A stretch of DNA of 64,000 nt from a virus (Duplodnaviria > Heunggongvirae > Uroviricota > Caudoviricetes), in the IMG/VR virus record IMGVR_UViG_3300042869_000717, positions 14,208-78,207 of that record; one strand, 5' to 3'. Positions 42,564-55,654 of this stretch are shown one piece after another. Positions within the stretch are counted from its first letter, which is position 1. Every line of letters starts with the position of its first letter. The notes beneath the pieces are model-generated. The model made no database searches, was not told where the DNA came from, and saw only the letters and a list, made by a program, of their open reading frames with translations. Position numbers and translations under genes: made by a program.

Positions 42564-43274
42564 ATGAATGAATTATTAACACCGGAAGAGAAAAAATATT
42601 TAGAAAGAGTTTCGAGATATGTCCAATCAATGGGACAGAAAGTTGTTGAAATTAGAATTGAAGCTAATGAATGGGATAACAAATCAGAAATCAGTAATAT
42701 TGAGTGGGAATATGTAACTAATTTTGATTATAACTCAACTTTAGATATTCCATCAGGATTTATTGAAATATTACAGAAAATTTTTAATTATTTAGATTCA
42801 TCAGGTAGTTATTCTTTTCCTGACATTGAGGGAATTAATTACCACGATTTTTTAATAGATTTTGACACAAGAAATAGAGAATTAACTATAAGACAAATTT
42901 ACAGTTATTATGATGTTGGTGGTAAATCTGAGGTTGATTTTGAAGGGGATGAAGTGGATATGGATTCATTTAGGGATGAATTATCATCTAATAATGTTGA
43001 AATCCCTGAAGATGGTATATTAACCGCTCGTTATAATGGTGGTGGTGATGACGGTTCCCTTGATGGTAGTTTTGACGAGATTAATGAGTCAGTCCCAAGT
43101 CTTATGGAAGATTTTTGTTATACTGTATTATCAAATAATTTTGGTGGTTGGGAAAATAATGAAGGTGGTGAAGGGTATTTTATGTTTAACTTTAATGATA
43201 ATACCGTCACTTTATATCACACTGAAAATATTGAAGAAAACGATTCAAATACATTATTTGAAACAAATTTTTAA
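42564..43274 (+). CDS. acidic hypothetical protein
   Basis: ORF track 236 aa. Confidence 0.5.
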   Translation: MNELLTPEEKKYLERVSRYVQSMGQKVVEIRIEANEWDNKSEISNIEWEYVTNFDYNSTLDIPSGFIEILQKIFNYLDSSGSYSFPDIEGINYHDFLIDFDTRNRELTIRQIYSYYDVGGKSEVDFEGDEVDMDSFRDELSSNNVEIPEDGILTARYNGGGDDGSLDGSFDEINESVPSLMEDFCYTVLSNNFGGWENNEGGEGYFMFNFNDNTVTLYHTENIEENDSNTLFETNF

Positions 43275-43286
43275 AAAAAAAAGAAA

Positions 43287-43451
43287 ATGAATTATTTAAA
43301 TGCAAAAATTTTTTTAGATAAAAAACAAGAGGAACATTTCACTGAATTTGGAGCCTACGCTGATACCAACAGTAAAATAGCTGAGTGGATGGAAGAATAC
43401 CTCCAAGAAGAATTAATAAAATTATCAGAAAAAATATTGACAAGTTTTTAA
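43287..43451 (+). CDS. hypothetical small protein (54 aa, not in track)
   Basis: ATG 43287 .. TAA 43449. Confidence 0.3.
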   Translation: MNYLNAKIFLDKKQEEHFTEFGAYADTNSKIAEWMEEYLQEELIKLSEKILTSF

Positions 43452-43706
43452 ACTTTTCGTAAGTTTGTAATAGTTATTAAAAACACAGGTAGAAATACCT
43501 AAAAAAAAAAAGAAAAATGAAAAATAGTAATAAACATATGAATGTCTCGATTTGGAACCAACAGTTTAGTAATTGTTCGTATCCGCGTATTTCGCATACA
43601 AGTTCAGATAGTTTATTAAATGATTTAACGACAATATAAAAGTTAAACATAAAATATAACCTAAATCCTGAACTCAAAAAGTTCGGGATTTTTTTTTACA
43701 AAAAAG

Positions 43707-43737
43707 TTTGGTAGAAACAAAAAAAGGATTACCTTTG
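43707..43737 (+). promoter_or_regulatory. Bacteroidetes-type promoter (TTTG at 43707 / TACCTTTG at 43730, 19-bp spacer) driving tRNA cluster 1
   Basis: motif pair 50 nt upstream of first tRNA. Confidence 0.55.
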
Positions 43738-43787
43738 TCCCATCAAAAATAAAGGAATTAGTTATTTGACATATTGGTAAGAAAAAT

Positions 43788-43870
43788 GGAGGAGTGGACA
43801 GTTGGTTGTCGAGCGGTCTTGAAAACCGTCGCTCGGAAACGGGTTGCAGGTTCGAATCCTGTCTCCTCCG
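43788..43870 (+). tRNA. tRNA-Ser (anticodon TGA), type II
   Basis: acceptor GGAGGAG/CTCCTCC, anticodon loop CTTGAAA, long variable arm, T-loop TTCGAAT. Confidence 0.6.
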
Positions 43871-43971
43871 CGGGTTAGTTAAATAGTTTAATCCACACCC
43901 AAAAAAGAATGTTCGGAGTGAAGCCGAGGCGAACGTAATTGTGGTAACCGTTCTTTAACTAAAAAATATTT

Positions 43972-44043
43972 TGCCCCTTCGTATATCGGTTAGTACACAT
44001 GGTTTTGGTCCATGCGGGAGTGGTTCGATTCCATTAGGGGTAA
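43972..44043 (+). tRNA. tRNA-Gln (anticodon TTG)
   Basis: acceptor TGCCCCT/AGGGGTA (U1-A72 as in E. coli Gln), anticodon stem CATGG/CCATG loop TTTTGGT, T-loop TTCGATT. Confidence 0.55.
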
Positions 44044-44097
44044 CAAGGGGTTCGGTGGAAACCCACGAGTAGGTGATGAGCCTATGTCCACCACAAT

Positions 44098-44169
44098 ACT
44101 GATGTAGCTCAGTGGTAGAGCACTTCTTTCATACGGAAGGTGTCGGTGGTTCAATCCCACCCATCGGTA
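44098..44169 (+). tRNA. tRNA-Met (anticodon CAT), copy 1
   Basis: acceptor ACTGATG/CATCGGT, D-arm GCTCAGTGGTAGAGC, anticodon loop TTCATAC, T-loop TTCAATC. Confidence 0.65.
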
Positions 44170-44175
44170 CAATTT

Positions 44176-44246
44176 ACCTCGTTGGCGTAATAGGAGCGTA
44201 TTTGTTTTACATACAAATGGCGGTGGAGCGTAACCATCACGAGGTA
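44176..44246 (+). tRNA. tRNA-like, anticodon TAC (Val?) with non-canonical D-arm and T-loop AGCGTAA
   Basis: perfect 7-bp acceptor ACCTCGT/ACGAGGT, perfect anticodon stem ATTTGT/ACAAAT loop TTTACAT, T-stem GGTGG/CCATC; D-stem not foldable. Confidence 0.35.
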
Positions 44247-44251
44247 CAAAA

Positions 44252-44332
44252 GGAAAATAAAAGTCGTTCGGATACGGCACCCTGACTGTAAATCAGGTCC
44301 TCACGGGAGTGGTTCGAGTCCACTATTTTCCA
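44252..44332 (+). tRNA. tRNA-Tyr (anticodon GTA), D-arm atypical
   Basis: acceptor GGAAAAT/ATTTTCC, anticodon stem CCTGA/TCAGG loop CTGTAAA, T-arm AGTGG-TTCGAGT-CCACT. Confidence 0.45.
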
Positions 44333-44491
44333 CTATAATAATGGTTTTCTCTATCCATCGGATGTCGACAATTCAGGATAGGTCAAAGAAATCATCACCC
44401 CCCTGAAAAGGGAATGTGCCGAGGGCCTCGTAAAACTACGATTAAGCACTTAAGATTGGAGCGAGACGGGTACTCCAACATTATTATAATT

Positions 44492-44564
44492 GTGTCTTTC
44501 GTATAGCTGGTGCGTACGTCCGCCTGAAGAGCGAAAGGAACAGGTTCGATTCCTGTAGGACACA
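44492..44564 (+). tRNA. tRNA-Phe (anticodon GAA)
   Basis: acceptor GTGTCTT/AGGACAC, D-arm GTAT..GTAC, anticodon loop CTGAAGA, T-arm ACAGG-TTCGATT-CCTGT. Confidence 0.6.
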
Positions 44565-44714
44565 CAAACGAGGTAATCGTTCCCAGAGTTGGTAAGGCCT
44601 TACCGGGACTCAAGAAAAGTAAAGTTACAGATGGATGCGTAACGCCTTGGACTACTATGACTTAATAATGATACGAGCTTCATACGTTCGCAAAATAACA
44701 TAGTGGTCAAAATC

Positions 44715-44786
44715 GGATTGGTAGCTCAGAGGAAGAGCGGCAGGTTGTTAGTCTGCGGGTCGGGATTTCGAAATTCCCCCGGTCCT
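44715..44786 (+). tRNA. tRNA-Asn (anticodon GTT), copy 1 (one T-stem mismatch)
   Basis: acceptor GGATTGG/CCGGTCC, D-arm GCTCAGAGGAAGAGC, anticodon stem GCAGG/TCTGC loop TTGTTAG. Confidence 0.5.
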
Positions 44787-44850
44787 CGAGGTCACCTTAC
44801 ACCTCCTATATGGCACTCGGTCCGTTAAGCCGGGGAAGTAAGGTAAAAAT

Positions 44851-44924
44851 TCTTCAGTAGCTCAGTTGGTTAGAGCATCGTACTGTTAATACGAGAGTCC
44901 TAGGTTCAAGTCCTAGCTGGAGAG
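44851..44924 (+). tRNA. tRNA-Asn (anticodon GTT), copy 2
   Basis: acceptor TCTTCAG/CTGGAGA, D-arm GCTCAGTTGGTTAGAGC, anticodon stem TCGTA/TACGA loop CTGTTAA, T-arm CTAGG-TTCAAGT-CCTAG. Confidence 0.65.
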
Positions 44925-44939
44925 CAAAATAAAGTACAT

Positions 44940-45013
44940 GGTGATTGTAGCTGAATTGGTAAAGCGTCTGGTTGTGGTCCAGGAGATTGTGGGTTCGAGT
45001 CCCACCTTTCACA
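44940..45013 (+). tRNA. tRNA-His (anticodon GTG) with extra 5' G(-1); acceptor has two U-U mismatches
   Basis: anticodon stem TCTGG/CCAGG loop TTGTGGT, T-arm GTGGG-TTCGAGT-CCCAC, G-1 present. Confidence 0.45.
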
Positions 45014-45068
45014 CTTAATTAAAATATTATGAAAAAGGTATTAGACAATCTTTGAGGTCCACTAAACA

Positions 45069-45272
45069 ATGGACTCAGAGATTATGAGTGTAAACACAAA
45101 CAGAATGAAATTGAACAAGGCGACTTGTTCAAAAGATTATAGATTGATTTGGTTAAAGTTTGAATACCCACCATATTGGGACGAGGGTGTTCATTACAGA
45201 AAAGGTCAGTTCTCTCACAAATATAGAGAACACAAAACTTGGAAGTATAACCGAAAAACTCAATGGAAATAA
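45069..45272 (+). CDS. hypothetical small protein within tRNA cluster (uncertain)
   Basis: ORF track 67 aa; no overlap with tRNAs. Confidence 0.25.
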   Translation: MDSEIMSVNTNRMKLNKATCSKDYRLIWLKFEYPPYWDEGVHYRKGQFSHKYREHKTWKYNRKTQWK

Positions 45273-45512
45273 AAATTGGTAAATATTAAGTATCTTTGTA
45301 AATTAATCTGGGACAATCAGATAGAGGTGAAACCTTAAAAGTTTCTGAAATATAATACAGAAGTCCAGGTAAGTCTGGAATAGAATATCTCTAATTTACA
45401 TAAAGATACTATCAGTAATGGTAAATGTGTTGTTCCCGGTGGGAGGGGAATGGAATAGTCGGGTGAGATTATAAATTTTAAAGGATTTATGTCTATATTT
45501 GCACAACACGAG

Positions 45513-45660
45513 GAGTTCTCAACCTCAAAATTAAAGTAGTTCAGTTGGTTAGAACAGACATACCTAACTCGAAAGAGAAAAACAACGAATAAGGGACGGA
45601 GTCACATCCAATACCGAACTAAGTGGAAAAGGAAATCAGGTCGTAGGTTCGAGTCCTACC
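45513..45660 (+). ncRNA. 148-nt tRNA-like gene with ~75-nt internal insertion (canonical acceptor ATTAAAG/CTTTAAT, D-arm GTTCAGTTGGTTAGAAC, T-arm GTAGG-TTCGAGT-CCTAC)
   Basis: 5' and 3' tRNA halves intact, anticodon arm not identifiable; preceded by conserved motif GAGGAGTTCTCAACCTCAAA. Confidence 0.35.
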
Positions 45661-45765
45661 TTTAATTCGAAATGTGTTATTCCCGATACGGTACGCAAAC
45701 CGTTGTGAGATGAGGGGTACTAAAAACTAGAGTATAAGTTCTCTATGACACAGAGGAATTCTCAA

Positions 45766-45908
45766 CCTCAAATTGGTCAGGTGGCGGAATTGGTAGACGC
45801 GTAATGGGTGATTGATTAATCGGGCCGTGAGACATCACATTAAATATGTTGACCATCCCGAAGAACCGAGTAAAATTGGTCTTTTCAATCGTACAGGTTC
45901 GAGACCTG
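45766..45908 (+). ncRNA. 143-nt tRNA-Leu-like gene with ~55-nt internal insertion (acceptor GGTCAGG/CCTGACC, Leu-type D-arm TGGCGGAATTGGTAGACGCG, T-arm ACAGG-TTCGAGA-CCTGT)
   Basis: D-arm matches bacterial tRNA-Leu; preceded by GAGGAATTCTCAACCTCAAA. Confidence 0.4.
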
Positions 45909-45965
45909 TCCTGACCACAAGGATGTTCCACCCTTACCAAATAATAGGGATGACTGATGGAAAGA

Positions 45966-46038
45966 CATCAAATTGTCTCCATCGTTCAACTGGAAAGGAC
46001 TTATCTTTACGACAGATAGAATAGGGGTTCGAATCCTC
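45966..46038 (+). tRNA. tRNA-Arg (anticodon ACG)
   Basis: acceptor GTCTCCA/TGGGGAC, anticodon stem TATCT/AGATA loop TTACGAC, T-loop TTCGAAT. Confidence 0.65.
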
Positions 46039-46071
46039 TTGGGGACACAAAAAAAACTTGAACTTTTCAAT

Positions 46072-46079
46072 ATTTTTGA
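46072..46079 (+). promoter_or_regulatory. -7 box TATTTTTG upstream of 46108
   Basis: TAnnTTTG 29 nt before ATG. Confidence 0.4.
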
Positions 46080-46107
46080 TATATTTATTAATAAACAAAT
46101 TAAGTAA

Positions 46108-46902
46108 ATGGAAACAGAAAAATTAAAAGATTCAATATTAAAATTGAGGTTAGAAGGATATAGTATTACAAATATTAAAAATATATTGGGTTGTAGCGTC
46201 GGTGTTATTTCATATCATATTAATAAAAATGGTATGGGAGGTGTTCACGAAAATTATAAAACAACAACAATAAATGATGAAGATTTTTTAAAACTAATTG
46301 ACAAATCGGTAATTGATAAAATTATTAATTTAAAACAAAATGGTGAAACATATAAAAGTATTTTTCCCCAAGTTAATATTAGTCAAGATAAAGTAATCAG
46401 AATTTGTAAAATTTTTAATCTTAATAAAAATAAAAATGAATTAAGATTTAAAGATGAGGATTTTATAAAAAAAATAAAAGAATTATATGACAAAATTGGT
46501 AGCATCCGAAAAGTTAGTGAAATATTAGGAGTTGGTAGAAAGATTATTAGTAGTATTGTTGAGGTCAAAACTCAAACCGCGATTGAACGTAGGAAAAGTT
46601 CTGTTGAACACGTAGTTAGATGTCGTAAAAATAGAAAAAAAAGATTAGTTGAGTATAAAGGTGGTTGTTGTCAGAGATGTGGTTATAGTAAATCTATGAA
46701 CGCCTTACAATTTCACCATATCAATCCTGATGAAAAAGATTTTACTATAGGGGGTAAAAATTATTCAGAAGAAAAAATGAAAAAAGAGGTTGATAAATGT
46801 GTTTTGGTTTGTAGTAATTGTCATTGTGAAATACACGAAGAAATAACTGAAACAGGTAAATCAGAATTTATTGTTAATTATTCAAAAAGAGAATTGCTGT
46901 AA
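46108..46902 (+). CDS. HNH homing endonuclease with N-terminal HTH repeats, inserted in tRNA cluster
   Basis: GGCCQRCGYSKSMNALQFHHINPDEKDFT ... CVLVCSNCHCEIHEE (HNH); two HTH-like N-terminal modules. Confidence 0.8.
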   Translation: METEKLKDSILKLRLEGYSITNIKNILGCSVGVISYHINKNGMGGVHENYKTTTINDEDFLKLIDKSVIDKIINLKQNGETYKSIFPQVNISQDKVIRICKIFNLNKNKNELRFKDEDFIKKIKELYDKIGSIRKVSEILGVGRKIISSIVEVKTQTAIERRKSSVEHVVRCRKNRKKRLVEYKGGCCQRCGYSKSMNALQFHHINPDEKDFTIGGKNYSEEKMKKEVDKCVLVCSNCHCEIHEEITETGKSEFIVNYSKRELL

Positions 46903-46972
46903 CGGTATCAGAACACACTGCTAATGTGTCCCTCCTTAAATGGGGGTATGGGTTCGAATCCCATATTCTCTA
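46888..46972 (+). tRNA. tRNA-Ser (anticodon GCT), type II; 5' end overlaps last 15 nt of HNH gene
   Basis: acceptor AGAGAAT/ATTCTCT perfect, anticodon stem ACACA/TGTGT loop CTGCTAA, long variable arm CCTCCTTAAATGGGGG, T-arm ATGGG-TTCGAAT-CCCAT. Confidence 0.7.
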
Positions 46973-46986
46973 CAAAAAAAATATAT

Positions 46987-47058
46987 TAGGGTGTATTCTC
47001 GGGGTGAGAAGCCTGCATTGGAGGCAGGAAGCGGAGAGTTCGACCCTCTCCACCCTAA
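46987..47058 (+). tRNA. tRNA-Pro (anticodon TGG)
   Basis: acceptor TAGGGTG/CACCCTA, D-stem TTCT/AGAA, anticodon stem CCTGC/GCAGG loop ATTGGAG, T-arm GAGAG-TTCGACC-CTCTC. Confidence 0.7.
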
Positions 47059-47063
47059 CAATT

Positions 47064-47136
47064 CGGTCAGTAGCTCAATCGGTAGAGCATTCGCCTGATA
47101 CGCGAAAGGTAGTGGGTTCGATACCCACCTGACCGA
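47064..47136 (+). tRNA. tRNA-Ile (anticodon GAT)
   Basis: acceptor CGGTCAG/CTGACCG, D-arm GCTCAATCGGTAGAGC, anticodon stem TTCGC/GCGAA loop CTGATAC, T-arm GTGGG-TTCGATA-CCCAC. Confidence 0.75.
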
Positions 47137-47324
47137 CAAATGTGGCTCATAAAGTTTGATTATTAATCTCAAATTACTTATATTTTGAGCCGAATAACAA
47201 AACAAAATGAGCTCAATAATCCCCTAAAGCTTTAAGGTGAAGCACGATACTTTTAATATCGGGAAAATGGGCCAGTACCATTTGGGGGAACAAAAAAAAA
47301 ATGTTTAATTAAAAATTAATAGTC

Positions 47325-47834
47325 GTGAGTAGTTACCAAAAAACTTTGGTTTTGGATTCAAGTTTTATGGCGAGGAGTATTATTTCCACAGAGAGGGCTT
47401 TCGTCATTTCTTATAAGGGTAATGCTGACGTTATAAATGAACATCCGGAATCATTCAAATTAGTGAATCCTGAATTGGATATCAAAAAACCTTCAATTAT
47501 TCGGGTCTACAAATATGTGAATCAGATAATTCAAAAAGTTCCTTTAAGTAGAGAGAATGTTTATCGTAGAGATAACTTTGAGTGTGTATATTGTGGAGAC
47601 AATAATAGAAAGACGCTAACTTTGGACCACGTAATACCCCAATCTAAGGGGGGGAAAGACAGTTGGGACAACTTAGTTACCGCTTGTAGAAGGTGTAACG
47701 GTGAGAAGTCCAATTTGACGTTGGAGGAATACGGTAAGGAAATTCCTCAACCAAGGAGACCTCATTACTTGATGTTAATGAAACAAGTTCATCACGAAAT
47801 CCCTGATGAATGGAGACCCTACTTATTCTTTTAA
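47325..47834 (+). CDS. HNH endonuclease (McrA-like)
   Basis: FECVYCGDNNRKTLTLDHVIPQSKGGKDSWDNLVTACRRCNGEK. Confidence 0.75.
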   Translation: MSSYQKTLVLDSSFMARSIISTERAFVISYKGNADVINEHPESFKLVNPELDIKKPSIIRVYKYVNQIIQKVPLSRENVYRRDNFECVYCGDNNRKTLTLDHVIPQSKGGKDSWDNLVTACRRCNGEKSNLTLEEYGKEIPQPRRPHYLMLMKQVHHEIPDEWRPYLFF

Positions 47835-47836
47835 CT

Positions 47837-48013
47837 ATGATAACAGAAAGTCAGTATAAAACAGCACTTAAAGTGGTGTCGGAATACAAGAAACAACAAA
47901 AATATTTAAAACCTAAGGAATGTCAACATTATAATATGGATTGGAGCATTGAAGAACAGAGATACGTTTGTCTTGATTGTGATTTCAAGGGACCTAAAAA
48001 AAGTGAGGAATAA
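47837..48013 (+). CDS. small zinc-ribbon protein with MITESQ N-terminus (truncated leader?)
   Basis: MITESQYKTALK...; CQHYNMDW...CLDC. Confidence 0.45.
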   Translation: MITESQYKTALKVVSEYKKQQKYLKPKECQHYNMDWSIEEQRYVCLDCDFKGPKKSEE

Positions 48014-48240
48014 TGTCAAATAAAATAAAATTCATTGGTAATGGTGATGATATATTCAAAAATGAAATTCATTTTACATCACCGGTTGGAAGTGATTACA
48101 CTTTATGTGGTTTAACACTTGATGGGGATTTTATGACTTGTGGTCAATTTGTAAAAACAAATGAAAATGTAAATTGTGAAGACTGTCAAAAAATTGTTAA
48201 CTTTTCAAAAACCATTAAAAAGACTTGGAAAACAATTTAA
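48013..48240 (+). CDS. small Cys-rich protein
   Basis: ORF track 75 aa, ATGA overlap. Confidence 0.45.
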   Translation: MSNKIKFIGNGDDIFKNEIHFTSPVGSDYTLCGLTLDGDFMTCGQFVKTNENVNCEDCQKIVNFSKTIKKTWKTI

Positions 48241-48256
48241 AGAAAATTCATAATTA

Positions 48257-48287
48257 TTTGGTAGATTAAATTTTAGTTGTATCTTTG
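48257..48287 (+). promoter_or_regulatory. promoter TTTG(48257)/TATCTTTG(48280)
   Basis: 19-bp spacing, 23 nt upstream of ATG 48310. Confidence 0.5.
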
Positions 48288-48309
48288 TCAAAATCAAAAA
48301 AGATAAGAT

Positions 48310-49152
48310 ATGGATAAGTTAAAAATAATGTTTAGTGAGAATTGGAAATCAATAATATTTTCATATTCATTGTTCATGATTAATGCGATATTGATGGTTA
48401 TGTATCCCAAAGTTTTGGGTAATGCAATTGACCACTTAATTACCAAAGATTATTCATACATATGGTATTTGGTTTCTACATTTGCATCAATTATGTTCTT
48501 CGGGTACATCAGTAAAATTTATGACACTAAAGTATTCTCCGGGATTTATAGGAGATTTGCCTCTATTGAAACAAGTAATCAACTTGATAATGATGTTGAG
48601 ACAACAAAAATCAACGGAAGATTAACCTTAATGCACTATATTGTCCTGTTTTTTGAACGAGATATGTTATTGGTAATACAGACGATTATTGGTTTGGTTG
48701 GCGCCATCTACTTCTTGGCAATGGTAAGTTTACCGATTGTTGGATTCTTGATTATTACAACAATATTAATCTTGGGGGCAACAGCATATTATTCACCAAA
48801 AATTGCCAACATTACAAGTAAATATAATGATTTGTCTGAAGAACAAACTGATGTGATTGGTACAAGAAAAATTGCCTCAATTAATAATTTATTAAAGAGA
48901 GGTCAGTTCTTATCACTTAAAATGTCAAGTATTGATGCTAAGTTTTCAATTTGGATTCAAGGTATTGTTTATGGAAGTGTGACAGCATTATTAACATACT
49001 ACGTAATGTACAATAAGGTGAGTGTGGGAAGTGTATTCTCAACTTATAGATATATGTTTGATTTTTGTAATGCTCTTCTTGGGTTACCAACAATTTTAAC
49101 ATCATATATTAATATTAAGGACGTTATTAAAAGATTAGAAACAGAAAATTAA
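48310..49152 (+). CDS. ABC-exporter-like transmembrane domain protein (6 TM), no ATPase domain in window
   Basis: 280 aa with 6 predicted TM helices arranged like type I ABC exporter TMD; next ORF is not an NBD. Confidence 0.5.
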   Translation: MDKLKIMFSENWKSIIFSYSLFMINAILMVMYPKVLGNAIDHLITKDYSYIWYLVSTFASIMFFGYISKIYDTKVFSGIYRRFASIETSNQLDNDVETTKINGRLTLMHYIVLFFERDMLLVIQTIIGLVGAIYFLAMVSLPIVGFLIITTILILGATAYYSPKIANITSKYNDLSEEQTDVIGTRKIASINNLLKRGQFLSLKMSSIDAKFSIWIQGIVYGSVTALLTYYVMYNKVSVGSVFSTYRYMFDFCNALLGLPTILTSYINIKDVIKRLETEN

Positions 49153-49157
49153 ATATT

Positions 49158-49433
49158 ATGTCAGAAGTAAAAAAACAACGTGAGAGAGTTATTGTGGCCG
49201 GAGATGGTGAATTATCATTTGGAATGGGAATTGAGAACAGTGTTAAATTACCATTCATTACGATTGATTCATTGTCAGAACCGAATGAGGTTGGTGTTGA
49301 TGTGTTAGGTGGTGAAAGTGAGGAAATTCTAACAATCATCTTTAAGAATCTCAAATCATTAGAGGTTTTGGAAAAAATGTGTAGTGAGTCAAGAAAATAT
49401 TTGGAAAATAAAGATAAAAATTTGGTAGATTAA
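49158..49433 (+). CDS. hypothetical protein
   Basis: ORF track 91 aa. Confidence 0.45.
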   Translation: MSEVKKQRERVIVAGDGELSFGMGIENSVKLPFITIDSLSEPNEVGVDVLGGESEEILTIIFKNLKSLEVLEKMCSESRKYLENKDKNLVD

Positions 49434-49443
49434 AAAATCGTAG

Positions 49444-49451
49444 TATCTTTG
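49444..49451 (+). promoter_or_regulatory. -7 box TATCTTTG upstream of 49474
   Basis: TAnnTTTG. Confidence 0.45.
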
Positions 49452-49473
49452 TCCCCACAAAAACTGATATATT

Positions 49474-49797
49474 ATGTTATTAGAAAACGAAATTTTAGAT
49501 TTTACGAATTGGTTGTATGACAATGGGTGGGAATTATCATCCGAAGGAAACTATACCAATATCCAAACTGATGAGGTTAAAAGTGTTGGAGAATTGATTA
49601 TTAAAAGTGAAACAATCAATGATTACGTACCACAAGCATTTCAAGTTGGTAATGTGGTTAGAGATAAAAATAGTGGAAATGAGGTTGAATTGACTAGAAT
49701 TGATTGGCATAAATACGACCGGGCATACACATATTGGTACGAAGATGAAGAAGGTGAGGAATGGTACGGATTTGAAGACGAATTTGAGAAAATATGA
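49474..49797 (+). CDS. hypothetical protein
   Basis: ORF track 107 aa. Confidence 0.5.
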   Translation: MLLENEILDFTNWLYDNGWELSSEGNYTNIQTDEVKSVGELIIKSETINDYVPQAFQVGNVVRDKNSGNEVELTRIDWHKYDRAYTYWYEDEEGEEWYGFEDEFEKI

Positions 49798-49979
49798 TTG
49801 AGAGTGATTTAACAACAGAAGAGCTAATAAGTGAAATTATTAAATTGGAATGTGAGATAACTGAATCAATTTTTAAAGGACATAAAGCTAATGATGGTGA
49901 CCAATATGTCAATCATAGAAAAAGATTATCTCTTTTAAGAAAAACACTCCGGAGTAGGAATATAATCGTATCTTTGTAA
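49794..49979 (+). CDS. hypothetical small protein
   Basis: ORF track 61 aa. Confidence 0.4.
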   Translation: MIESDLTTEELISEIIKLECEITESIFKGHKANDGDQYVNHRKRLSLLRKTLRSRNIIVSL

Positions 49980-50045
49980 AAATTATTACATATACACCTT
50001 GTTATGTGTATGTAAAAAACGTAAAAAAATTAAACTTTTAAATAT

Positions 50046-50270
50046 ATGAAACGAACTAAATTAACAGATTTTATTTTGAAAAACCTACAATGGACTGGTT
50101 TATTTTTGTGTGAACAAATTTACTGGAGTAGATTGAGTAAAACACTGAATGACATCAAAAACAACATAGATGACATTGAAACAATTTCACACAAAAATAA
50201 TGATGTAATAAAGGGGTTTTCAAAAGAAAACTTCGATAATAGAACACTGTATAAAGTTGAGGTAGTTTAA
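50046..50270 (+). CDS. hypothetical protein
   Basis: ORF track 74 aa; TTGTTATGTGTATGTAAAA motif ~40 nt upstream. Confidence 0.45.
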   Translation: MKRTKLTDFILKNLQWTGLFLCEQIYWSRLSKTLNDIKNNIDDIETISHKNNDVIKGFSKENFDNRTLYKVEVV

Positions 50271-50380
50271 TTTTAGTTTTTTATTACACATAACGGTTGG
50301 GTGTAAAAAATTGTTTTAATGTTTTTTACACTTTGTTATGTTTAGTTTTAAAAAATTTATACAACTTAAAAATATATTAT

Positions 50381-50650
50381 ATGAAAGAATGGATAGAGAT
50401 AAATTCAGAACAAGATTTACCAAATGAAGAATTATTTTGTTGGTGGGTAAATAGAACAAATGGTCATATGTTTCCAAGTAAATTGAAAGGACAAATGGGA
50501 AGAAGTTTGTCTCATTTAACATTTAGTCACTATATGGTTATTGATGATGTACCAACGCCACCAACAGAACGAAAACCACTTGAAGAACAAACTTCTTGGA
50601 CTAAATTTGATGTAAACAAAATACTTCAAGACAAATTAAAAAACAAATAA
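50381..50650 (+). CDS. hypothetical protein (track ORF 50297.. trimmed to MKEWIEI)
   Basis: TTTGTTATGT motif ~47 nt upstream. Confidence 0.45.
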   Translation: MKEWIEINSEQDLPNEELFCWWVNRTNGHMFPSKLKGQMGRSLSHLTFSHYMVIDDVPTPPTERKPLEEQTSWTKFDVNKILQDKLKNK

Positions 50651-50898
50651 ATTTCTTAAAATTAAACATAACGATTGAGTATAAAAGAAGTGCGGTTGTG
50701 TAACAACTATCTTGCAAGGTAGATGCGGTTCAACTCCGTAACAGAGGATTTCCAATGTCGAACTTTTGGAGCATTTCTTTTATACTTTGTTATAAAATCG
50801 TTTTAATGTTTTATAACGTCCGATGATAAACAATCGTTTTAATGTTGTTTATCATTTGTTATGTGTATGTAAAATAAAAATTATACAAATTTAAAATT

Positions 50899-51111
50899 AT
50901 GGGACGAAATAGAAACGGAAGTAATGAATTATTAGAATCTTTAATCGGAATGAATAAAGAATCAGGAACAGAATTATGTAAAGAAAATGATTATAAAGTT
51001 AGAATAACAAGAGAAGATTCTAATAATTATGTAATCACAATGGATTTACGATTTGATAGAATAAACTTGGAGATTGATAAAGGATTAATAACCAAATGTG
51101 ATATAGGATAA
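50899..51111 (+). CDS. hypothetical protein
   Basis: ORF track 70 aa; TTTGTTATGTGTATGTAAAA 40 nt upstream. Confidence 0.45.
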   Translation: MGRNRNGSNELLESLIGMNKESGTELCKENDYKVRITREDSNNYVITMDLRFDRINLEIDKGLITKCDIG

Positions 51112-51393
51112 TCATAATTTTTATTTTATTACACATAACTATGTTATATATGTAATATTGTGTAAAACATTAATTATTAGTAAGTTATATTATGAAAAAC
51201 CAAAAAATTATAAAGATTTGTGAAGAAAAGTTTATATATCTGAACTACTCCCCTAAAACTGGAAATAATTATTTATCGCATGTTAAACCTTTCTTAGAAA
51301 GTTTATACTCACGTTTCAAATAATATTTTAAGTAAAGTAAAACTTCCTATATAATTTTCTAATTTTTAATTTGGTTGGTTAAAAATTTATTCC

Positions 51394-51401
51394 TACCTTT
51401 G
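51394..51401 (+). promoter_or_regulatory. -7 box TACCTTTG (with TTTG at ~51370)
   Basis: upstream of 51453. Confidence 0.45.
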
Positions 51402-51452
51402 TAAAAAAATTAAAGATTAACTCTTGGTGTAAGAGGATTAAAAATAGAAATT

Positions 51453-51695
51453 ATGATATTAAAAAAAGATATGGTTGAAGGGTGGTATAATGGTTTCTGT
51501 AGAAACAACCACATGGCATATTGGGATGGTGAAAAGTTCCAATACATTCGATATCAGTTCGGGTTTTATTTGGACACCATTGAACATTTTGAGGATGTTA
51601 AAGAAAAAAGATTGGACGGATTTGTTCCGGTTGAAAGGGTTGAAAGAATCCCCATTGATGAACAATGGAAGATTAAAGATGAAATAGGATATTAA
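51453..51695 (+). CDS. hypothetical protein
   Basis: ORF track 80 aa. Confidence 0.45.
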   Translation: MILKKDMVEGWYNGFCRNNHMAYWDGEKFQYIRYQFGFYLDTIEHFEDVKEKRLDGFVPVERVERIPIDEQWKIKDEIGY

Positions 51696-51855
51696 GATGA
51701 CAGAATACGAAGCAAAACAAAGATTAAAGTGGTTTATTGATGGATATTTTATCCATTGTTTGGGAAGTTTATTCTCCAAAATGTCCACAGAAAGAATTTG
51801 TGAATTATACAATGTTGAGATGTCATATTTTAGAGAAGATATTAAATAAACAAAT

Positions 51856-52242
51856 ATGGGTAGATATTATTTCCAAGTAGATAGAGTGGCGTCAATGAGT
51901 TTCCAACCGGAAAAAGAAACAGGTTATAAGTGGTTTGATAAAGTACCATCAAAACCTAAAACATTTTTAGGGATTAAGTATGGTATGACAGAAGAAACAC
52001 CTGAAGGGTGGAGTAATTATAATTCCGGAATAAACCGAAGAACTACGGAATATTTAAGTGAATACAAATGGTATCTTATCAATGAAGAAACTAAAGAAAT
52101 TCGACAAAAATCTCAAATAACCGTTAATTTATCTGATAAGACATCACATAGCACGTATTTTGATTCTGAAGAAGAAGCGGAAGAATATATGTATGGATTA
52201 CAAGAATCAACCGGTAAGGAGTTTTTTGGAATTGACACATAA
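51856..52242 (+). CDS. hypothetical protein
   Basis: ORF track 128 aa. Confidence 0.5.
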   Translation: MGRYYFQVDRVASMSFQPEKETGYKWFDKVPSKPKTFLGIKYGMTEETPEGWSNYNSGINRRTTEYLSEYKWYLINEETKEIRQKSQITVNLSDKTSHSTYFDSEEEAEEYMYGLQESTGKEFFGIDT

Positions 52243-52412
52243 AAATTAAATTTACACATAGAAAGACAAACAGCGTTAAAGTTAGAAAATGTAACACTAC
52301 AAGAAGTGTTATGTTTGTTGAGTAAGTTAGTTTTAGGGAGGAATGAAATAGTTTGAAAATAAATAGCCCTTCTAATTATCCCAATCTTGATGGATGTGTG
52401 ATTTATTAAAAC

Positions 52413-52480
52413 ACCCGCTACGTAGTCACGGCCGGATAACACGTACAGACAAGGGAGAAAAGGTCAGTCCGGGTGTTTTT
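52413..52480 (+). ncRNA. structured element closed by long-range stem ACACCCG...CGGGTGT followed by T6 (terminator-like or small RNA)
   Basis: 7-bp GC-rich closing stem enclosing ~50 nt, then TTTTTT. Confidence 0.3.
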
Positions 52481-52552
52481 TAAAATAGAAAACCTACAGT
52501 GCTCATAGAATGATATGGATACAATTCCTGTTCTTTAGGTCGTAGGTTAAAT

Positions 52553-52622
52553 GGTCTTGTTGGTCGTGGCGACCGGTTAGTCTGCAAAACTAATAGAGTG
52601 GGTTCGATTCCCCCCGAGACCT
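52553..52622 (+). tRNA. tRNA-Cys (anticodon GCA), short D-loop, one T-stem mismatch
   Basis: acceptor GGTCTTG/CGAGACC, anticodon stem TTAGT/ACTAA loop CTGCAAA, T-loop TTCGATT. Confidence 0.45.
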
Positions 52623-52855
52623 CAAATAACATAGTTTTTTAACTCGCGAAAATCGGCTTGAATCTCTGAATGGAAAACGCGTTTCTTAGTAAGAGGTGAA
52701 ATAGAAAATTAGATTCGGAGGCATCCGGGTTGTGTGAAAAAGTAGGGGGGTTACCCGGCGGGGGACTACAAAAAATTATGTTATTATTTTTGGTGAAACA
52801 TAGGTTATGGTGACCCTTTTTAGTTTTTTAAGATATTTATATTAAAATAAAGTAT

Positions 52856-53503
52856 ATGAATTTAAAAACTGTAACAAAAGAAGAATTATTTGAAATATTA
52901 AATAATTCAAAATCAATGAGAGAGGTTATTTTATTATTTAATTTATCACCAAATGGGTCGGGTGGTTATAGAAATATTAAAGACAGAATTATTAAATTGG
53001 GTTTAGAGATTCCTAAATATAATTATTATGGTACAGGACCTAAAGAAGTTAGATTAGACGAGGACGTTTTTGTTAAAGATTCAACATTTGCGAGAGGTAA
53101 AATTAAAAATAGAATATTAAAGAAAAATTTACTTGAGTATAAATGTGTCGAATGTGGCAATAATGGGGAATGGAATGGTAAAAATATTAGCCTACATTTA
53201 GACCATATTAATGGGGTTAATAATGACAATAGAATAGAAAATTTAAGATTTTTATGTCCTAATTGTCACTCCCAAACTAGCACATATTCCGGGAAATCTA
53301 ATAAAATTAAATACCATTGTGAGTGTGGTGGTACAAAAGATAAAAAAAGTGATAAATGTATCAAATGTACAAATAAACAAAATAGAAAAGTTGAGAGACC
53401 ATCCATAGAACAAATAAAACAAGATGTAATTAATCTTGGGTATAAAGGAACAGGTCGTAAATATGGTGTTAGTGATAACGCCATTAGAAAATGGTTAAAA
53501 TAA
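52856..53503 (+). CDS. HNH homing endonuclease (paralog of 57424..58221)
   Basis: CVECGNNGEWNGKNISLHLDHINGVNNDNRIENLRFLCPNCHSQT; shared N- and C-terminal modules with 57424 gene. Confidence 0.8.
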   Translation: MNLKTVTKEELFEILNNSKSMREVILLFNLSPNGSGGYRNIKDRIIKLGLEIPKYNYYGTGPKEVRLDEDVFVKDSTFARGKIKNRILKKNLLEYKCVECGNNGEWNGKNISLHLDHINGVNNDNRIENLRFLCPNCHSQTSTYSGKSNKIKYHCECGGTKDKKSDKCIKCTNKQNRKVERPSIEQIKQDVINLGYKGTGRKYGVSDNAIRKWLK

Positions 53504-53504
53504 T

Positions 53505-53575
53505 ACGTTTGTGATGTAATGGTAGCATAATTCTCTCCAAAAGAATTTGTATGGGTTCGAGACCTATCAAACGTG
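53505..53575 (+). tRNA. tRNA-Trp (anticodon CCA)
   Basis: acceptor ACGTTTG/CAAACGT perfect, D-arm ATGT..GCAT, anticodon stem ATTCT/AGAAT loop CTCCAAA, T-arm ATGGG-TTCGAGA-CCTAT. Confidence 0.65.
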
Positions 53576-53737
53576 CAAGAAGACGGAGAGTGATTTAAGG
53601 GTATAATTCCGTTAGGTGACCCCTTGAGGGTCTCTCCCGAAGAAATATTGTAAAACTAAACTTCCACATAAGGTGAAGTCGGTCATAATTGTTGGTGTGG
53701 ATGTACTTCAAAGCCGTCTGTTGTTTTACAAAAAAAA

Positions 53738-53808
53738 GGGATAAAAGCACATAAGGATGTGCAAGCATCAGACGGTGCGAGGCATGGGTTCGAATCCCAA
53801 ATATTCCA
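53738..53808 (+). tRNA. tRNA-like (D-arm GCAC..GTGC and T-arm ATGGG-TTCGAAT-CCCAA present; anticodon arm unresolved)
   Basis: partial cloverleaf only. Confidence 0.25.
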
Positions 53809-54337
53809 CAAAAACAGACACATAACTTAAGTCAGTGGTAATACGGATGTGAGGTTCGGAGTAATCAACCAAACCAAGAGACCGCCGAGGGTAAACACGG
53901 GTATGATGCCCGTCTAGTCCCCTAAGACGTAAATATCGGAGAATCATTCTGTCTGTTTTTAATTATTTGGGTAACCTTTCCGGTGTAGCGAATCGGGCCA
54001 TTCGGTGAGGGTGGTGTCAGAGAATAAGGTTAATTGGAGTACAATGTATTGTAATATTTCTAGAAAAAAAGATATGTCAAGGCTCTCGGTGCGAATCCCC
54101 TGTTACCCACAAAATTTATCGATACGGTGAATACCGGCGATAATCGCCGTAGAAATACGGTGAATGTAAATAAAAAGTTTAACAACCGGGGTGTCCATAC
54201 TCTAAAAAATTAATGGACTAGCGTGTTGATAGGGGTGACCTCCCAATAGTAGCACCGTAGTAATACGGTAAAGGATAGATAAGGACTAGTACGCCGGTGA
54301 CGAACACGACGAATTCCGGAATTCCCATGTAGCCCGC

Positions 54338-54372
54338 TACGACCCGAGGGCGGGGTTGTTAAACTTTTTTAA
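54338..54372 (+). terminator. hairpin CCCG-AGGG-CGGG + T6, closing a ~170-nt region bounded by AACAACC...GGTTGTT long-range pairing
   Basis: T-run after GC hairpin at end of 0.8-kb noncoding stretch. Confidence 0.45.
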
Positions 54373-54510
54373 TAATATTACTTATGATTAAAATACCTTC
54401 ACCTCGAAGAAATTATCCATTTCCGATAATTGTTAAAACAATATTATCTATACCGGTTTAAAAAAAAATGTATTTGAATAGTAATTCATTATGTTAAGAT
54501 ATTTATTAGT

Positions 54511-54897
54511 ATGAGAAAATTTATAATTACCGAAGAAGAAAAAGACGATATATTAAACCAACACAAAGAAATGATGGATAAACCAAAACTTCCGGAGAAT
54601 AGAAAAATATTAGATTTTGATATAACTCCAATGAGTTTACTTAAATTTAAGTCTCAGGGGTTAACACCGTATTATTACGATGGAGATACCAATATTATTG
54701 AAATAACAAGTCCAATTATAGGGAAGACATATAACACTATACCAAAAGAAGTGTTCTTATTAACTCCGGATGAATACGATAAGATTAAAAAATTATCTGA
54801 CAATATTAAGGAAATGATTGAACTTAAAATGAATGCAATTAAATTGTTTAAACAATACATTCCGGCTGTTTTAGATGAACTTATAGAAAATAAATAA
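54511..54897 (+). CDS. FIITEEE-leader family protein
   Basis: N-terminus MRKFIITEEEKDDILNQHKEMM. Confidence 0.55.
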   Translation: MRKFIITEEEKDDILNQHKEMMDKPKLPENRKILDFDITPMSLLKFKSQGLTPYYYDGDTNIIEITSPIIGKTYNTIPKEVFLLTPDEYDKIKKLSDNIKEMIELKMNAIKLFKQYIPAVLDELIENK

Positions 54898-55103
54898 TTA
54901 ATACTTGACACTTTTATAAAAAGGTGTATATTTATTAGAAATTACAATAACACAGAAAATGCAAACTTTAAACATATTACTTACGATAGCGGGAACTGAG
55001 GGTAGAGATACGACTTGGAAGGAGATGGTATGATATATATTTAAGTAAAAAAAAATATTTAAAAATCCATCTTCAAAAAAGGTGGATTTTTTTTTTGTTT
55101 TTA

Positions 55104-55134
55104 TTTGGTAGAATGAAATAATGTATTACCTTTG
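55104..55134 (+). promoter_or_regulatory. promoter TTTG(55104)/TACCTTTG(55127); upstream motif TTTGGTAGAATGAAATAA shared with 55624 and 59338 promoters
   Basis: 19-bp spacing; 18 nt before ATG 55152. Confidence 0.55.
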
Positions 55135-55151
55135 TAACAAATAAAAGGATT

Positions 55152-55394
55152 ATGAAAAAATTAATTTTAATTATGTCCATCCCACTATTCTTATCTTGTT
55201 CTGTTGATGGATATGTGAGTTGTAATTGTGGGCTAGTAATTAGTAATAGAGTGAGAGATTATTCTGTTGTAATTAGAAATGAATGTACCGGAGATGATAA
55301 ATTATTTTATCTATACCCGAATGATTGGAGAAACGCCCAAGTGGGTTCACAATTTTGTATTTATAACACCAATAATTGGAGAAAATCAAATTAA
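55152..55394 (+). CDS. putative lipoprotein
   Basis: MKKLILIMSIPLFLSCS signal peptide with lipobox. Confidence 0.5.
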   Translation: MKKLILIMSIPLFLSCSVDGYVSCNCGLVISNRVRDYSVVIRNECTGDDKLFYLYPNDWRNAQVGSQFCIYNTNNWRKSN

Positions 55395-55398
55395 AGTT

Positions 55399-55530
55399 AT
55401 GGAAGAATATACAGGAGAACAAATATTGGTCATAATGGGTGGATTGTTGGTATGTTTACTGGTATTGATACTCGCAGGTAAAAAATATATTGATACAATA
55501 ACTAAAAATAATAATAACAGGTATGATTAG
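55399..55530 (+). CDS. small membrane protein (from track ORF 55279..55530, internal Met)
   Basis: MEEYTGEQILVIMGGLLVCLLVLILAGKKY single TM. Confidence 0.3.
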   Translation: MEEYTGEQILVIMGGLLVCLLVLILAGKKYIDTITKNNNNRYD

Positions 55531-55623
55531 AGAAGAGTTGGTTATGGATTACTCACCGATATTGGGAGTAACCTACGGATTAAAAAATGTTTTAGTCGAA
55601 GAAGAAAAAAAAGAAGAGTAAAG

Positions 55624-55654
55624 TTTGGTAGAATGAAATAAAGCATTATCTTTG
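55624..55654 (+). promoter_or_regulatory. promoter TTTG(55624)/TATCTTTG(55647) driving tRNA cluster 2
   Basis: 47 nt upstream of tRNA-Glu. Confidence 0.55.

Follow-up and report, generated by a model that had tools for sequence, protein, structure and literature searches.

In engineered tRNA scaffolds, made after the approach of Ponchon and Dardel, a tRNA retains its acceptor, D and T arms, a foreign RNA takes the place of the anticodon arm, and the tRNA enzymes of the host process and stabilise the product (PMC3753655). Here we describe two tRNA-like genes, TL1 and TL2, and the structured RNA element that precedes each of them, in a stretch of 64,000 nucleotides (hereafter the window) of a phage of the class Caudoviricetes (IMG/VR record IMGVR_UViG_3300042869_000717, positions 14,208 to 78,207). 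In both genes the tRNA parts that processing enzymes read are kept, and the anticodon loop and the variable arm are replaced by a lineage-specific insert. On balance, we favour the view that TL1 and TL2 are small RNAs with a tRNA scaffold and no decoding function, and neither interrupted tRNAs nor pseudogenes. The engineered scaffolds are man-made, whereas those considered here are natural, phage-encoded, of tRNA-Leu type and members of a multi-gene family, and their processing is a prediction only.

Among the tRNA genes of phage T4 lie those of two small stable RNAs, species 1 and 2, which are matured by tRNA-processing enzymes. RNase P is known to process non-tRNA RNAs of phages, and T-even phages produce 'tRNA-like molecules' (PMC11143913), catalogued by Moen, Seidman and McClain in 1978 according to the account of their work in the same paper. 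We liken TL1 and TL2 to these RNAs by description only, and the family here differs from them in that a single fixed scaffold carries many unrelated inserts and occurs in phages whose promoters are of Bacteroidota type. The tRNA-like mascRNA defines the 3' end of MALAT1, and tRNAs punctuate mitochondrial transcripts; there, too, non-decoding tRNA shapes read by RNase P and RNase Z set the ends of neighbouring RNAs, but these systems are eukaryotic or organellar and the analogy is one of mechanism only. With tmRNA, our two genes share a tRNA-like acceptor and T-arm domain, a long internal insertion and the lack of decoding in the usual sense. Unlike tmRNA, they have a full D arm and a U-A pair at 3-70 (no G3.U70), and they are without its layout of pseudoknots and open reading frame (ORF). 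Neither ARAGORN nor the Rfam tmRNA model called them, and a real phage tmRNA, present in locus L149, looks different. Finally, bacterial tRNA genes with a group I intron (tRNA-Leu(UAA) and others) likewise have additional sequence within the anticodon region, in a gene of tRNA-Leu type, but the inserts here, of 28-115 nt, are too short for a group I core (usually >200 nt) and are mutually unrelated.

The element may in turn be compared with two kinds of phage RNA. Theta ribozymes, which are minimal HDV-like ribozymes of Bacteroidota gut phages, adjoin the 3' end of tRNAs (within 1 nt in 77% of cases) and have been proposed to play a role in tRNA maturation (PMC10879173). Like them, the element is a small structured RNA between tRNA genes without encoded CCA, in phages of Bacteroidota type; unlike them, it begins 4-6 nt after the discriminator and folds as a three-way junction with a kissing hairpin, not as a nested double pseudoknot. 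An HDV-like topology was rejected for it: two hairpins lie between the P1 strands, the AAA tail is without a catalytic C, and no HDV-like Rfam family matched. Scans of positions 45250-46100 and of examples of the second type of element (type B, see below) gave no match to any self-cleaving ribozyme, or to any other family describing the element, in Rfam 15, whether at the gathering thresholds or at E up to 10; that release presumably contains the hammerhead, twister, twister-sister, pistol and hatchet families. GOLLD and ROOL are likewise conserved structured non-coding RNAs of phages, typically found near tRNAs and still without an assigned function, but the element lacks an Rfam match and is much smaller, with a core of ~100 nt, or ~230 nt with its leader.

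Structure of the tRNA-like RNAs and of the TL2 scaffold family

TL1 and TL2 sit in a small-RNA array with about 25 ordinary tRNAs (coordinates of the features are collected in Table 1). An earlier note on this DNA, made from the sequence alone, had pointed to two tRNA-like genes with insertions, each preceded by a conserved motif; the features are there, but the limits that it gave, 45513-45660 and 45766-45908, are 9-17 nt too low. The perfect 7-bp acceptor stems and the canonical D and T arms that it described can be read directly from the sequence. The acceptor stem is formed by ATTAAAG (45530-36) and CTTTAAT (45660-66) in TL1 and by GGTCAGG (45775-81) and CCTGACC (45910-16) in TL2, the D arms have A14 and G18G19, and the T arms have UUCGA. 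What both genes lack is the canonical 5-bp anticodon stem with a 7-nt loop bearing U33 and an anticodon. In TL1 (D arm 45539-55; T arm 45643-59; discriminator U; trailer CGA), a purine-rich, weakly structured insert of ~81 nt (45557-45637) stands in place of the anticodon arm. In TL2 (Leu-type D arm TGGCGGAATTGGTAGACGC; T arm ACAGG-TTCGAGA-CCTGT, 45893-909; discriminator A73; trailer CAA), the insert of 91 nt (45802-45892) fills the space between position 26 and the T arm. The statement of the earlier note that there is no recognisable anticodon stem is essentially right: a helix of 5 bp is present at the corresponding place of TL2 (TAATG, 45802-06, with CATTA, 45838-42), but it encloses 31 nt instead of a 7-nt loop, and the intron models that can be forced on the two genes have mismatched stems. 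TL2 is called neither by default ARAGORN nor by Rfam, and TL1 is not called by default ARAGORN. In a covariance-model scan, a check that the note had proposed, TL1 reaches 43 bits with the Rfam tRNA model (gathering score 29), but only because 77 nt within the anticodon arm are skipped; the models from the intron mode of ARAGORN, discussed further below, are forced.

TL2 belongs to a family of RNAs with the scaffold [A/G]GUCAGG-UGGCGGAAU(U)GGUAGACGC ... ACAGG-UUCRANN-CCUGU-CCUGAC[U/C]-A, found in IMG/VR and in lake metagenome contigs, and has all four features of the family, i.e. the acceptor with A73, the D arm, the T arm and a non-anticodon insert. Members were retrieved by the start of the D arm plus the T arm, with no filter on acceptor pairing, which gave at least 84 distinct sequences. 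Among these 84, all seven acceptor pairs are formed in 71 and six of the seven in 9, and alternative Watson-Crick pairs occur at each of the seven positions (e.g. A-U in 65 and G-C in 6 for pair 1-72; G-C in 73, A-U in 5 and U-A in 2 for pair 6-67). Compensatory substitutions are found in the acceptor and T stems; the discriminator is A73 in 73/84, and the trailer is CAA in 43 members and CTA in 16. Across the family, these three arms (acceptor, D and T) hardly vary, while the middle part is unrelated between types. One locus can carry several copies: there are six in L126 (one scaffold, unrelated inserts) and four in L165, in both cases with gaps of 60-1900 nt between them. The same contigs, and the window too, also contain genuine tRNA-Leu(TAG/TAA) genes, whose acceptor stems are different. 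Since pseudogenes would not retain covarying stems, decay is excluded; the scaffold stems do covary, and the decayed pseudogenes without covariation that the earlier note had named as grounds for giving up its observation are not what we found.

The relationship of TL1 to this family is looser. Its D and T arms, of class-I type, resemble those of an ordinary tRNA-Ile of an unrelated contig, and a scan with its D arm matched only an unrelated normal tRNA. Its acceptor stem and discriminator U are those of a small subfamily of tRNA-likes with Leu-type D arms (L098, L103 and L151). TL1 therefore shares only the rare acceptor of this sub-group with the scaffold family, and its D and T arms differ.

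The inserts do not behave as introns would in a common tRNA. The sequences adjoining position 26 and the T arm differ in every tRNA-like type, which leaves no conserved halves of an anticodon arm as exons; the 'anticodons' that ARAGORN reads on one and the same scaffold are arbitrary (Gly, Gln, Tyr, Pro, Thr, Ser, Glu and others); and members of 80 nt have a 5-bp stem with a 5-nt loop (GUUGA) where the anticodon loop is expected. Splicing to a common tRNA is excluded because the inserts are unrelated, no exons are shared and the 'anticodons' are arbitrary. The lengths of the inserts cluster around 50-75 nt. No k-mer was common to them above the level of shuffled sequences, and the pentamer TGAGA of the element's P2 loop (see below) occurs in 5 of 23 inserts, an enrichment that is not significant (P = 0.06).

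An all-against-all comparison gave 16 insert pairs at 90-100% identity, and in the more diverged of the related inserts the pattern of change is informative. In L105/L161, the initial 24 nt of the insert contain five substitutions, all of them within a single 4-bp helix, the pairs of which are kept or improved (A-U to U-A, A-U to G-C, U.C to G-C). In L009/L045, the insert hairpin UCCUU/AAGGA has become CCCU/AGGG. In L001/L101, 27 of the 29 positions of the insert 5' domain are identical, yet five of the seven acceptor pairs and the T stem differ, and the hairpin of the variable arm has been swapped for a different hairpin of similar size. Because orthologous inserts carry such compensatory changes, we consider, as judged from these few comparisons, that RNA-level selection acts on some of the inserts at least.

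The spacer/leader RNA element and its neighbours

The 20-nt motif seen before each gene had been taken for a stand-alone leader; it is actually the 3' hairpin of a structured RNA of ~100 nt. With up to 3 mismatches, the motif is matched twice in the 64 kb (0.00 expected from shuffles). It is present exactly in 21 IMG/VR contigs, and in all of them it terminates a unit of 80-122 nt with the sequence GUGUUGUUCCC-(G/U)UGAGA-GGGGAA-[variable hairpin]-ACAACAC-A-GAGGAGUUCUCAACCUC-AAA. This unit folds into a three-way junction followed by the 3' hairpin, P4, the loop of which (UUCUCA) pairs with the P2 loop (UGAGA) to make a loop-loop pseudoknot. From the 21 contigs and the window, 25 distinct full elements were extracted, and a covariance model, R1, was made for the element. 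With filters off, R1 detects exactly 2 copies in the tRNA region of the window (43000-59500); it detects 34 in the first 21 loci, and at least 94 more in a second set of at least 120 contigs fetched with the 5' half of the element alone. The element is therefore widespread, with some 130 copies at least in more than 100 uncultivated phage contigs. In copy 1, P1 is GUGUUGU/ACAACAC, P2 is UUCCC..GGGAA with the loop GGUGGGAG, P3 is a variable hairpin and P4 is GAGG-AGUUCUCAA-CCUC. Copy 2, nearly identical to the element of L004, has an extra hairpin within the P2 loop, and its P1 (GUGUUAU/AUGACAC) shows a compensatory change, G-C to A-U, with respect to copy 1.

The fold is borne out by comparison. 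The cells of the proposed pairs are paired at 93.0% and 92.7% in the two sets, vs 54% at most when the 3' partners are slid, and in the larger set the covariation score exceeds that of all 500 shuffles, a control that ignores relatedness; in addition, the samples were picked by exact seeds, which limits their variation. In P4, a G-C pair is changed to A-U in 10 sequences and to U-A in 7; in L003, the loop-loop pairing UGAGA/UCUCA has become UAAGA/UCUUA; and a variant in L014 has an entirely different P2 stem under an unchanged loop. Because most single changes give G.U pairs, the element would act as RNA, on the strand of the tRNAs. A reading at the DNA level, as an inverted repeat or transposon ends, is disfavoured by these G.U-compatible changes and by the strand asymmetry.

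Two types can be distinguished. In type A, P4 is closed, the end is ...CCUCAA(A), and the element lies inside small-RNA arrays. Type B continues as ...ACAACAC-AAAUGAGUUCUCAGC... into a long conserved 3' domain and forms the 5' leader of protein-coding operons or, in L149, of the tmRNA. In that locus (200-690, minus strand), the type B leader lies ~60 nt 5' of the phage-encoded tmRNA (Rfam tmRNA 49.6 bits), so that members of the leader family stand before non-coding transcripts too, and not before coding ones alone. Copy 1 of the window is a hybrid of the two types, with a type A 3' end and a type-B-like upstream leader (closing helix, block ACAUAAAGAUAC and GUAA-type hairpin). The closing helix of this leader, an inverted repeat, is formed by AAGTATCTTTGTAAATT (45288-45304) and AATTTACATAAAGATAC (45392-45408), inside which lie variable hairpins, and it is followed by the hairpin P0, CTATCAGTAATGGTA (~45409-45424). 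The architecture shared by 20 distinct loci consists of a GGTTAAACATTGAA-TAcCTTTG box, a covarying closing stem, ACATAAAGATAC and the GUAA-type hairpin. The box (45291-45298 in the window; ~20 loci) looks like a promoter -7 element without the -33 TTTG, and is also an arm of the long inverted repeat that it forms with ...ACATAAAGATAC; a promoter peculiar to the phage, an operator or a segment of the RNA are its candidate roles. Since this TAnnTTTG-like box is inside an inverted repeat, a start of transcription at the leader is uncertain.

As to what the element does, type B, being placed close to where transcripts begin, suggests that it works as a leader, for instance in antitermination or stabilisation, and the repetition of type A between small RNAs suggests a processing or insulating role; conceivably, it may also be a ribozyme. 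Its start lies 4-6 nt past the discriminator of the preceding tRNA (usually after CAAA) and its end 0-4 nt before the next 5' end. With spacing as variable as this, release by RNase P is a better fit than a ribozyme making the mature tRNA end. Gaps of 4-8 nt are common between adjacent tRNAs of these arrays, and in L098, L103 and L151 the tRNA-like itself starts 4 nt past the discriminator of the preceding tRNA, after the trailer CAAA.

According to the earlier note, the motif is absent from other tRNAs. This holds for the tRNA region of the window, where the only two copies detected by R1 are those before TL1 and TL2, but not for related phages, where the element precedes ordinary tRNAs as well. 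The next unit within a few nt of 80 distinct type A copies is a TL2-type tRNA-like in 25 cases, an ordinary tRNA in 21, another element in 6 and some other RNA in 28, TL1 being one of these and several of the rest being tRNA-shaped or structured RNAs. Counted from the other side, the element stands directly 5' of 17/71 tRNA-likes but of 23/585 tRNAs only (odds ratio 7.7, P 7.5e-8, uncorrected for relatedness among contigs). The link between the motif and odd tRNAs is thus real but not exclusive. Three further arrangements were seen near the element. Another recurrent structured RNA, beginning with CTATTAGTGAACTTCGGTACCCATACCGCTGACGATGGGCTAAGTAAGATACAATTCC, lies 3' of type A elements in L063, L112, L125, L148, L079 and L169. 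L006 (3597-3800) has, in this order, the 5' half of a scaffold (AGTCAGGTGGCGGAATGGTAGACGA), an entire element and a complete tRNA-like, which looks like an intermediate of cassette recombination or duplication. Lastly, the 57-nt spacer between TL2 and tRNA-Arg in the window recurs between a tRNA-like and tRNA-Arg in L001, and may be a reduced relative of the element.

Favoured interpretation and its alternatives

If TL1 and TL2 are indeed small RNAs on a tRNA scaffold, the array would be transcribed, tRNAs included, as a single precursor from the nearest canonical promoter, to which the leader at 45288 may add a start. RNase P would cut at the 5' end of each tRNA-like and thereby set the 3' end of the upstream element; the CAA or CGA trailer would be trimmed and CCA added, as for the neighbouring tRNAs, which are without encoded CCA. 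The product would be a stable L-shaped RNA of ~140 nt with the insert as its 'anticodon limb', and would as such be unable to decode. The scaffold would provide processing and stability, and the insert would be the functional, diversifying part; our best guess is that it binds a factor, of the host or of a competitor, that takes part in the phage-host conflict centred on tRNAs. In E. coli, A73 and the D loop of Leu type are leucine identity elements. Both are kept in TL2, for which reason leucylation of this RNA is possible.

Several points weigh against this view. For TL1 and TL2 themselves, comparative support is absent: four scans for orthologues of the two genes or of their inserts in IMG/VR returned nothing or chance matches in coding regions, and blastn of the locus and of a typical element-plus-tRNA-like against INPHARED gave no true match in cultured phages. 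Folding is close to that of shuffled sequences, with z = +0.24 for the TL1 insert, -0.24 for the TL2 insert and a mean of -0.49 for the family. The helix at the position of the anticodon stem is no longer than expected by chance (4.71 vs 4.46 bp in shuffles), and a shared pseudoknot in which the insert loop would pair with the variable region was rejected (5.55 bp vs 5.16 in the null). The test of association between element and tRNA-likes takes no account of relatedness among contigs. Unconstrained inserts are, besides, equally compatible with a function of the scaffold alone, as a processing signal or as a decoy. As for antisense action, complementarity of the TL1 and TL2 inserts to the window is at chance level only (10-13-mers).

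The processing signal deserves attention among the alternatives, although we hold it to be unlikely. The tRNA-likes would then be punctuation, recruiting RNase P and 3'-processing enzymes to make the ends of the element or of mRNAs, and the insert would be unselected filler. This agrees with the conservation of the functional parts of the scaffold and with the random look of the inserts (no shared k-mer, weak folding, variable length), with the enrichment of tRNA-likes directly 3' of the element, and with the fact that for 52/80 distinct type A elements the next unit is a tRNA, a TL2-type tRNA-like or a further element; the 60-1900-nt gaps in L126 and L165 could hold other transcripts, and MALAT1/mascRNA and the mitochondria offer precedents. 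It does not explain the compensatory changes in orthologous inserts, or why the L001/L101 insert is more conserved than the stems of its scaffold. Deletion bias should shrink filler, yet the insert lengths cluster; punctuation needs conservation neither of A73 nor of the acceptor AGUCAGG; and the ordinary tRNAs of the same arrays already serve as punctuation. A decoy, in which the tRNA-Leu-like body titrates a tRNA-binding defence, toxin or tRNA enzyme, is in our opinion less probable still. The anticodon and variable region would be free to vary, or varied so as to be uncleavable, and the candidates for titration are nucleases or CCA-end-modifying toxins that read the acceptor, the elbow or the type-II body. 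Conservation of the scaffold down to the discriminator and the presence of up to six copies per locus speak for it, as do the T4 Rnl1-type RNA ligase and the two metallophosphoesterases of the phage, which agree with pressure from defences that cleave tRNAs. It is known that tRNAs of phages can serve as counter-defences (PMC10264068, PMC11464382), and the variable loop of a type-II tRNA is given as a target of Septu (PMC13096335). The earlier note had suggested tRNA-derived regulatory RNAs or decoys for anticodon nucleases. Its suggestion is compatible with the evidence as far as non-decoding, tRNA-shaped RNAs are concerned, which is the direction we favour, but the anticodon-nuclease decoy is unlikely because there is no anticodon loop to recognise, and known anticodon nucleases need one. 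A decoy would also leave unexplained the selected, type-specific inserts and the dissimilarity of inserts among paralogues of one genome. We know of no tRNA-Leu-directed defence, which counts against it too.

That the genes are debris of selfish DNA, i.e. tRNA-Leu pseudogenes repeatedly disrupted by homing-endonuclease cutting and sloppy repair, or by scars of mobile elements, with the halves kept as recombination anchors, seems to us very improbable. The tRNA region is indeed crowded with HNH homing-endonuclease genes, with those of NUMOD type elsewhere in the window, the layout is cassette-like (the half-scaffold, element and complete tRNA-like of L006 being a case in point), and the inserts look random. 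But without RNA-level selection the acceptor and T stems would not have acquired compensatory substitutions, and compensatory changes are seen within inserts as well, 71/84 copies keep 7/7 acceptor pairs, and the nucleotides of the tertiary interactions are intact. Least credible of all is the removal of the insert as an intron, by self-splicing or by an endonuclease together with the phage RNA ligase. In intron mode, ARAGORN proposes a tRNA-Leu(taa) with a 50-nt intron and a tRNA-His(gtg) with a 66-nt intron, the phage does encode an Rnl1-type ligase, and tRNA-Lys was found in the window by neither ARAGORN nor Rfam. These models were rejected: the anticodon stems are mismatched, C33 (TL1) or G33 (TL2) stands for U33, and the His identity contradicts the Leu-type D arm. 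tRNAs for Leu(TAG), Leu(TAA) and His(GTG) are already present in the window, no intron, ribozyme or other non-tRNA family of Rfam 15 matched the TL1/TL2 locus (45250-46100) at E up to 10, and neither a group I catalytic core nor a family match was found for the inserts of 81 and 91 nt. Among the 30 ORFs scanned, there was no splicing endonuclease of archaeal or eukaryal type, although no search for bulge-helix-bulge motifs was made. With no conserved anticodon-stem/loop exons across the 84 members, no match to an intron family, and a 5-nt loop in the 80-nt members, the 'novel small intervening sequence' of the earlier note has to be abandoned. What that note had observed is real and beyond chance; its intron idea is wrong, and its idea of a tRNA-derived RNA went in the right direction.

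Surroundings of the locus and significance

The phage is large and, from ORF scans, of lytic type, with genes that include thymidylate synthase and ClpP; no close cultured relative was found, and the host, too, is uncultivated. ARAGORN detects 23 tRNAs in the window, and Rfam adds 3 more. Two of those that Rfam detects and default ARAGORN misses are unusual: the T arm is aberrant (GGGAUAUCGUAAUUCUCC) in one of them, which has a CAU anticodon, and odd in the other, a tRNA-Val(TAC). Another tRNA, directly 5' of tRNA-Leu(TAA), has an 8-nt anticodon loop in which ARAGORN reads a 4-base anticodon, 'gtaa'; it may belong to the quadruplet or frameshift type, or be a non-canonical tRNA of some other kind. 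About 800 nt following tRNA-Trp are G+C-richer, poor in ORFs and apparently highly structured, and match no Rfam family. They contain a degenerate tRNA-like (Rfam tRNA 22.8 bits, under the gathering score) and a second T-arm-like end, and their 5' part (GACGGAGAGUGA...GGGUCUCUCC) and the block GGGAUAAAAGCACAUAAGGAUGUGCA are also found in L015. Sites of the form TTTG-N17-21-TAnnTTTG, which we take to be the Bacteroidota promoter type, number 16 in the window against 4.3 expected, with gaps between the boxes of mostly 19-20 nt, and the pattern is also reflected in the repeat families D3, D4 and D7.

Table 1. Positions of the features discussed, with the basis of each call or a remark
Feature	Position in the window	Strand	Basis or remark
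TL1, 138-nt tRNA-like RNA, class-I-type D arm	45530..45667	+	Rfam tRNA model
TL2, 143-nt tRNA-Leu-derived scaffold RNA	45775..45917	+	scaffold family membership
Spacer/leader RNA element copy 1, type A	45427..45529	+	R1 81.7 bits, E 5e-16
Spacer RNA element copy 2, type A	45674..45772	+	R1 71.1 bits, E 1e-13
20-nt motif copy 1, GAGGAGTTCTCAACCTCAAA	45510-45529	+	P4 hairpin and AAA tail of element copy 1
20-nt motif copy 2, GAGGAATTCTCAACCTCAAA	45753-45772	+	P4 hairpin and AAA tail of element copy 2
5' leader domain before element copy 1	45288..45426	+	same architecture in 20 distinct loci
Nearest upstream canonical Bacteroidota-type promoter, TTTG-N19-TAnnTTTG	43707..43737	+	50 nt 5' of the first tRNA of the array
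57-nt spacer from TL2 to tRNA-Arg (CAAGGATGTTCCACCC...GACATCAAATT)	45918..45974	+	R1 detects nothing
Ordinary tRNA-Arg(ACG), next unit of the array	45975..46048	+	directly 3' of the element in many relatives
67-aa ORF	45069-45272		basic C-terminus
tRNA with CAU anticodon or tRNA-Val(TAC)	58730-58802; 44176-44246		Rfam
tRNA with 8-nt anticodon loop	57181-57257		ARAGORN
G+C-richer, structured region	53580-54370		no Rfam family
Degenerate tRNA-like in that region	53738-53808		Rfam tRNA
Second T-arm-like end in that region	54082-54115		
HNH homing-endonuclease-like ORFs	46108-46902; 52856-53503; 57424-58221		within the tRNA region
NUMOD3-type endonuclease ORFs	25988-26737; 18857-19513; 7900-8805		outside the tRNA region
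T4 Rnl1-type RNA ligase	30425-31606	-	38% identity with Streptomyces phage RNA ligases
Metallophosphoesterase, calcineurin-like	17009-17710	-	
Metallophosphoesterase, calcineurin-like	33744-34406	-	

Upstream of the leader lies the 67-aa ORF, with a strongly basic C-terminus (...HKYREHKTWKYNRKTQWK) and no Pfam match. A homologue ends directly 5' of the first element of the array in L001, L007, L014 and L016-L018, and the product could be a partner protein, or the gene could be merely syntenic. The ligase and the two phosphoesterases could form an RNA-repair set, which would fit the pressure of tRNA-cleaving host defences. Of the endonuclease ORFs, the second and third of HNH type listed share a C-terminal repeat, G-R-x-Y-x-V-S-D-N-A-[IV]-R-K-W (repeat family D12), and homing endonucleases may be drivers of the shuffling of RNA cassettes in the array.

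Descriptions of either RNA family appear to be lacking from Rfam 15, from the collection of cultured phages and from the literature searched, where nothing relevant was found on the element sequences or on natural phage RNAs with a tRNA scaffold. Phage tRNA clusters are now viewed as arsenals of counter-defence, yet annotation pipelines pass over whatever is not a clean tRNA. The present locus reveals two abundant RNA families hidden in such clusters, from which covariance models can be had for a better annotation of the non-coding regions of phages. The element, if it proved to be catalytic or to act on RNA polymerase, would be a new functional RNA class. With its unrelated inserts, the tRNA-Leu-derived scaffold would be the natural equivalent of engineered tRNA scaffolds and, if charged with leucine, a new kind of non-decoding aminoacyl-RNA. 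A bolder picture, which we advance only tentatively and consider doubtful as it stands, is that freshwater phages with Bacteroidota-type promoters possess a natural RNA 'display' system: a tRNA-Leu-derived scaffold, maybe leucylated, would carry interchangeable effector inserts, up to six per locus, in arrays organised by pseudoknotted leaders and spacers, and the inserts would serve as binders, sponges or guides in conflicts between phage and host or between phages; the element would in that case be a new means of processing or antitermination, and possibly a new ribozyme. Should the inserts be effectors, they would represent a new layer of RNA-based interaction between phages and their hosts, and a new class of non-coding RNA weaponry of phages.

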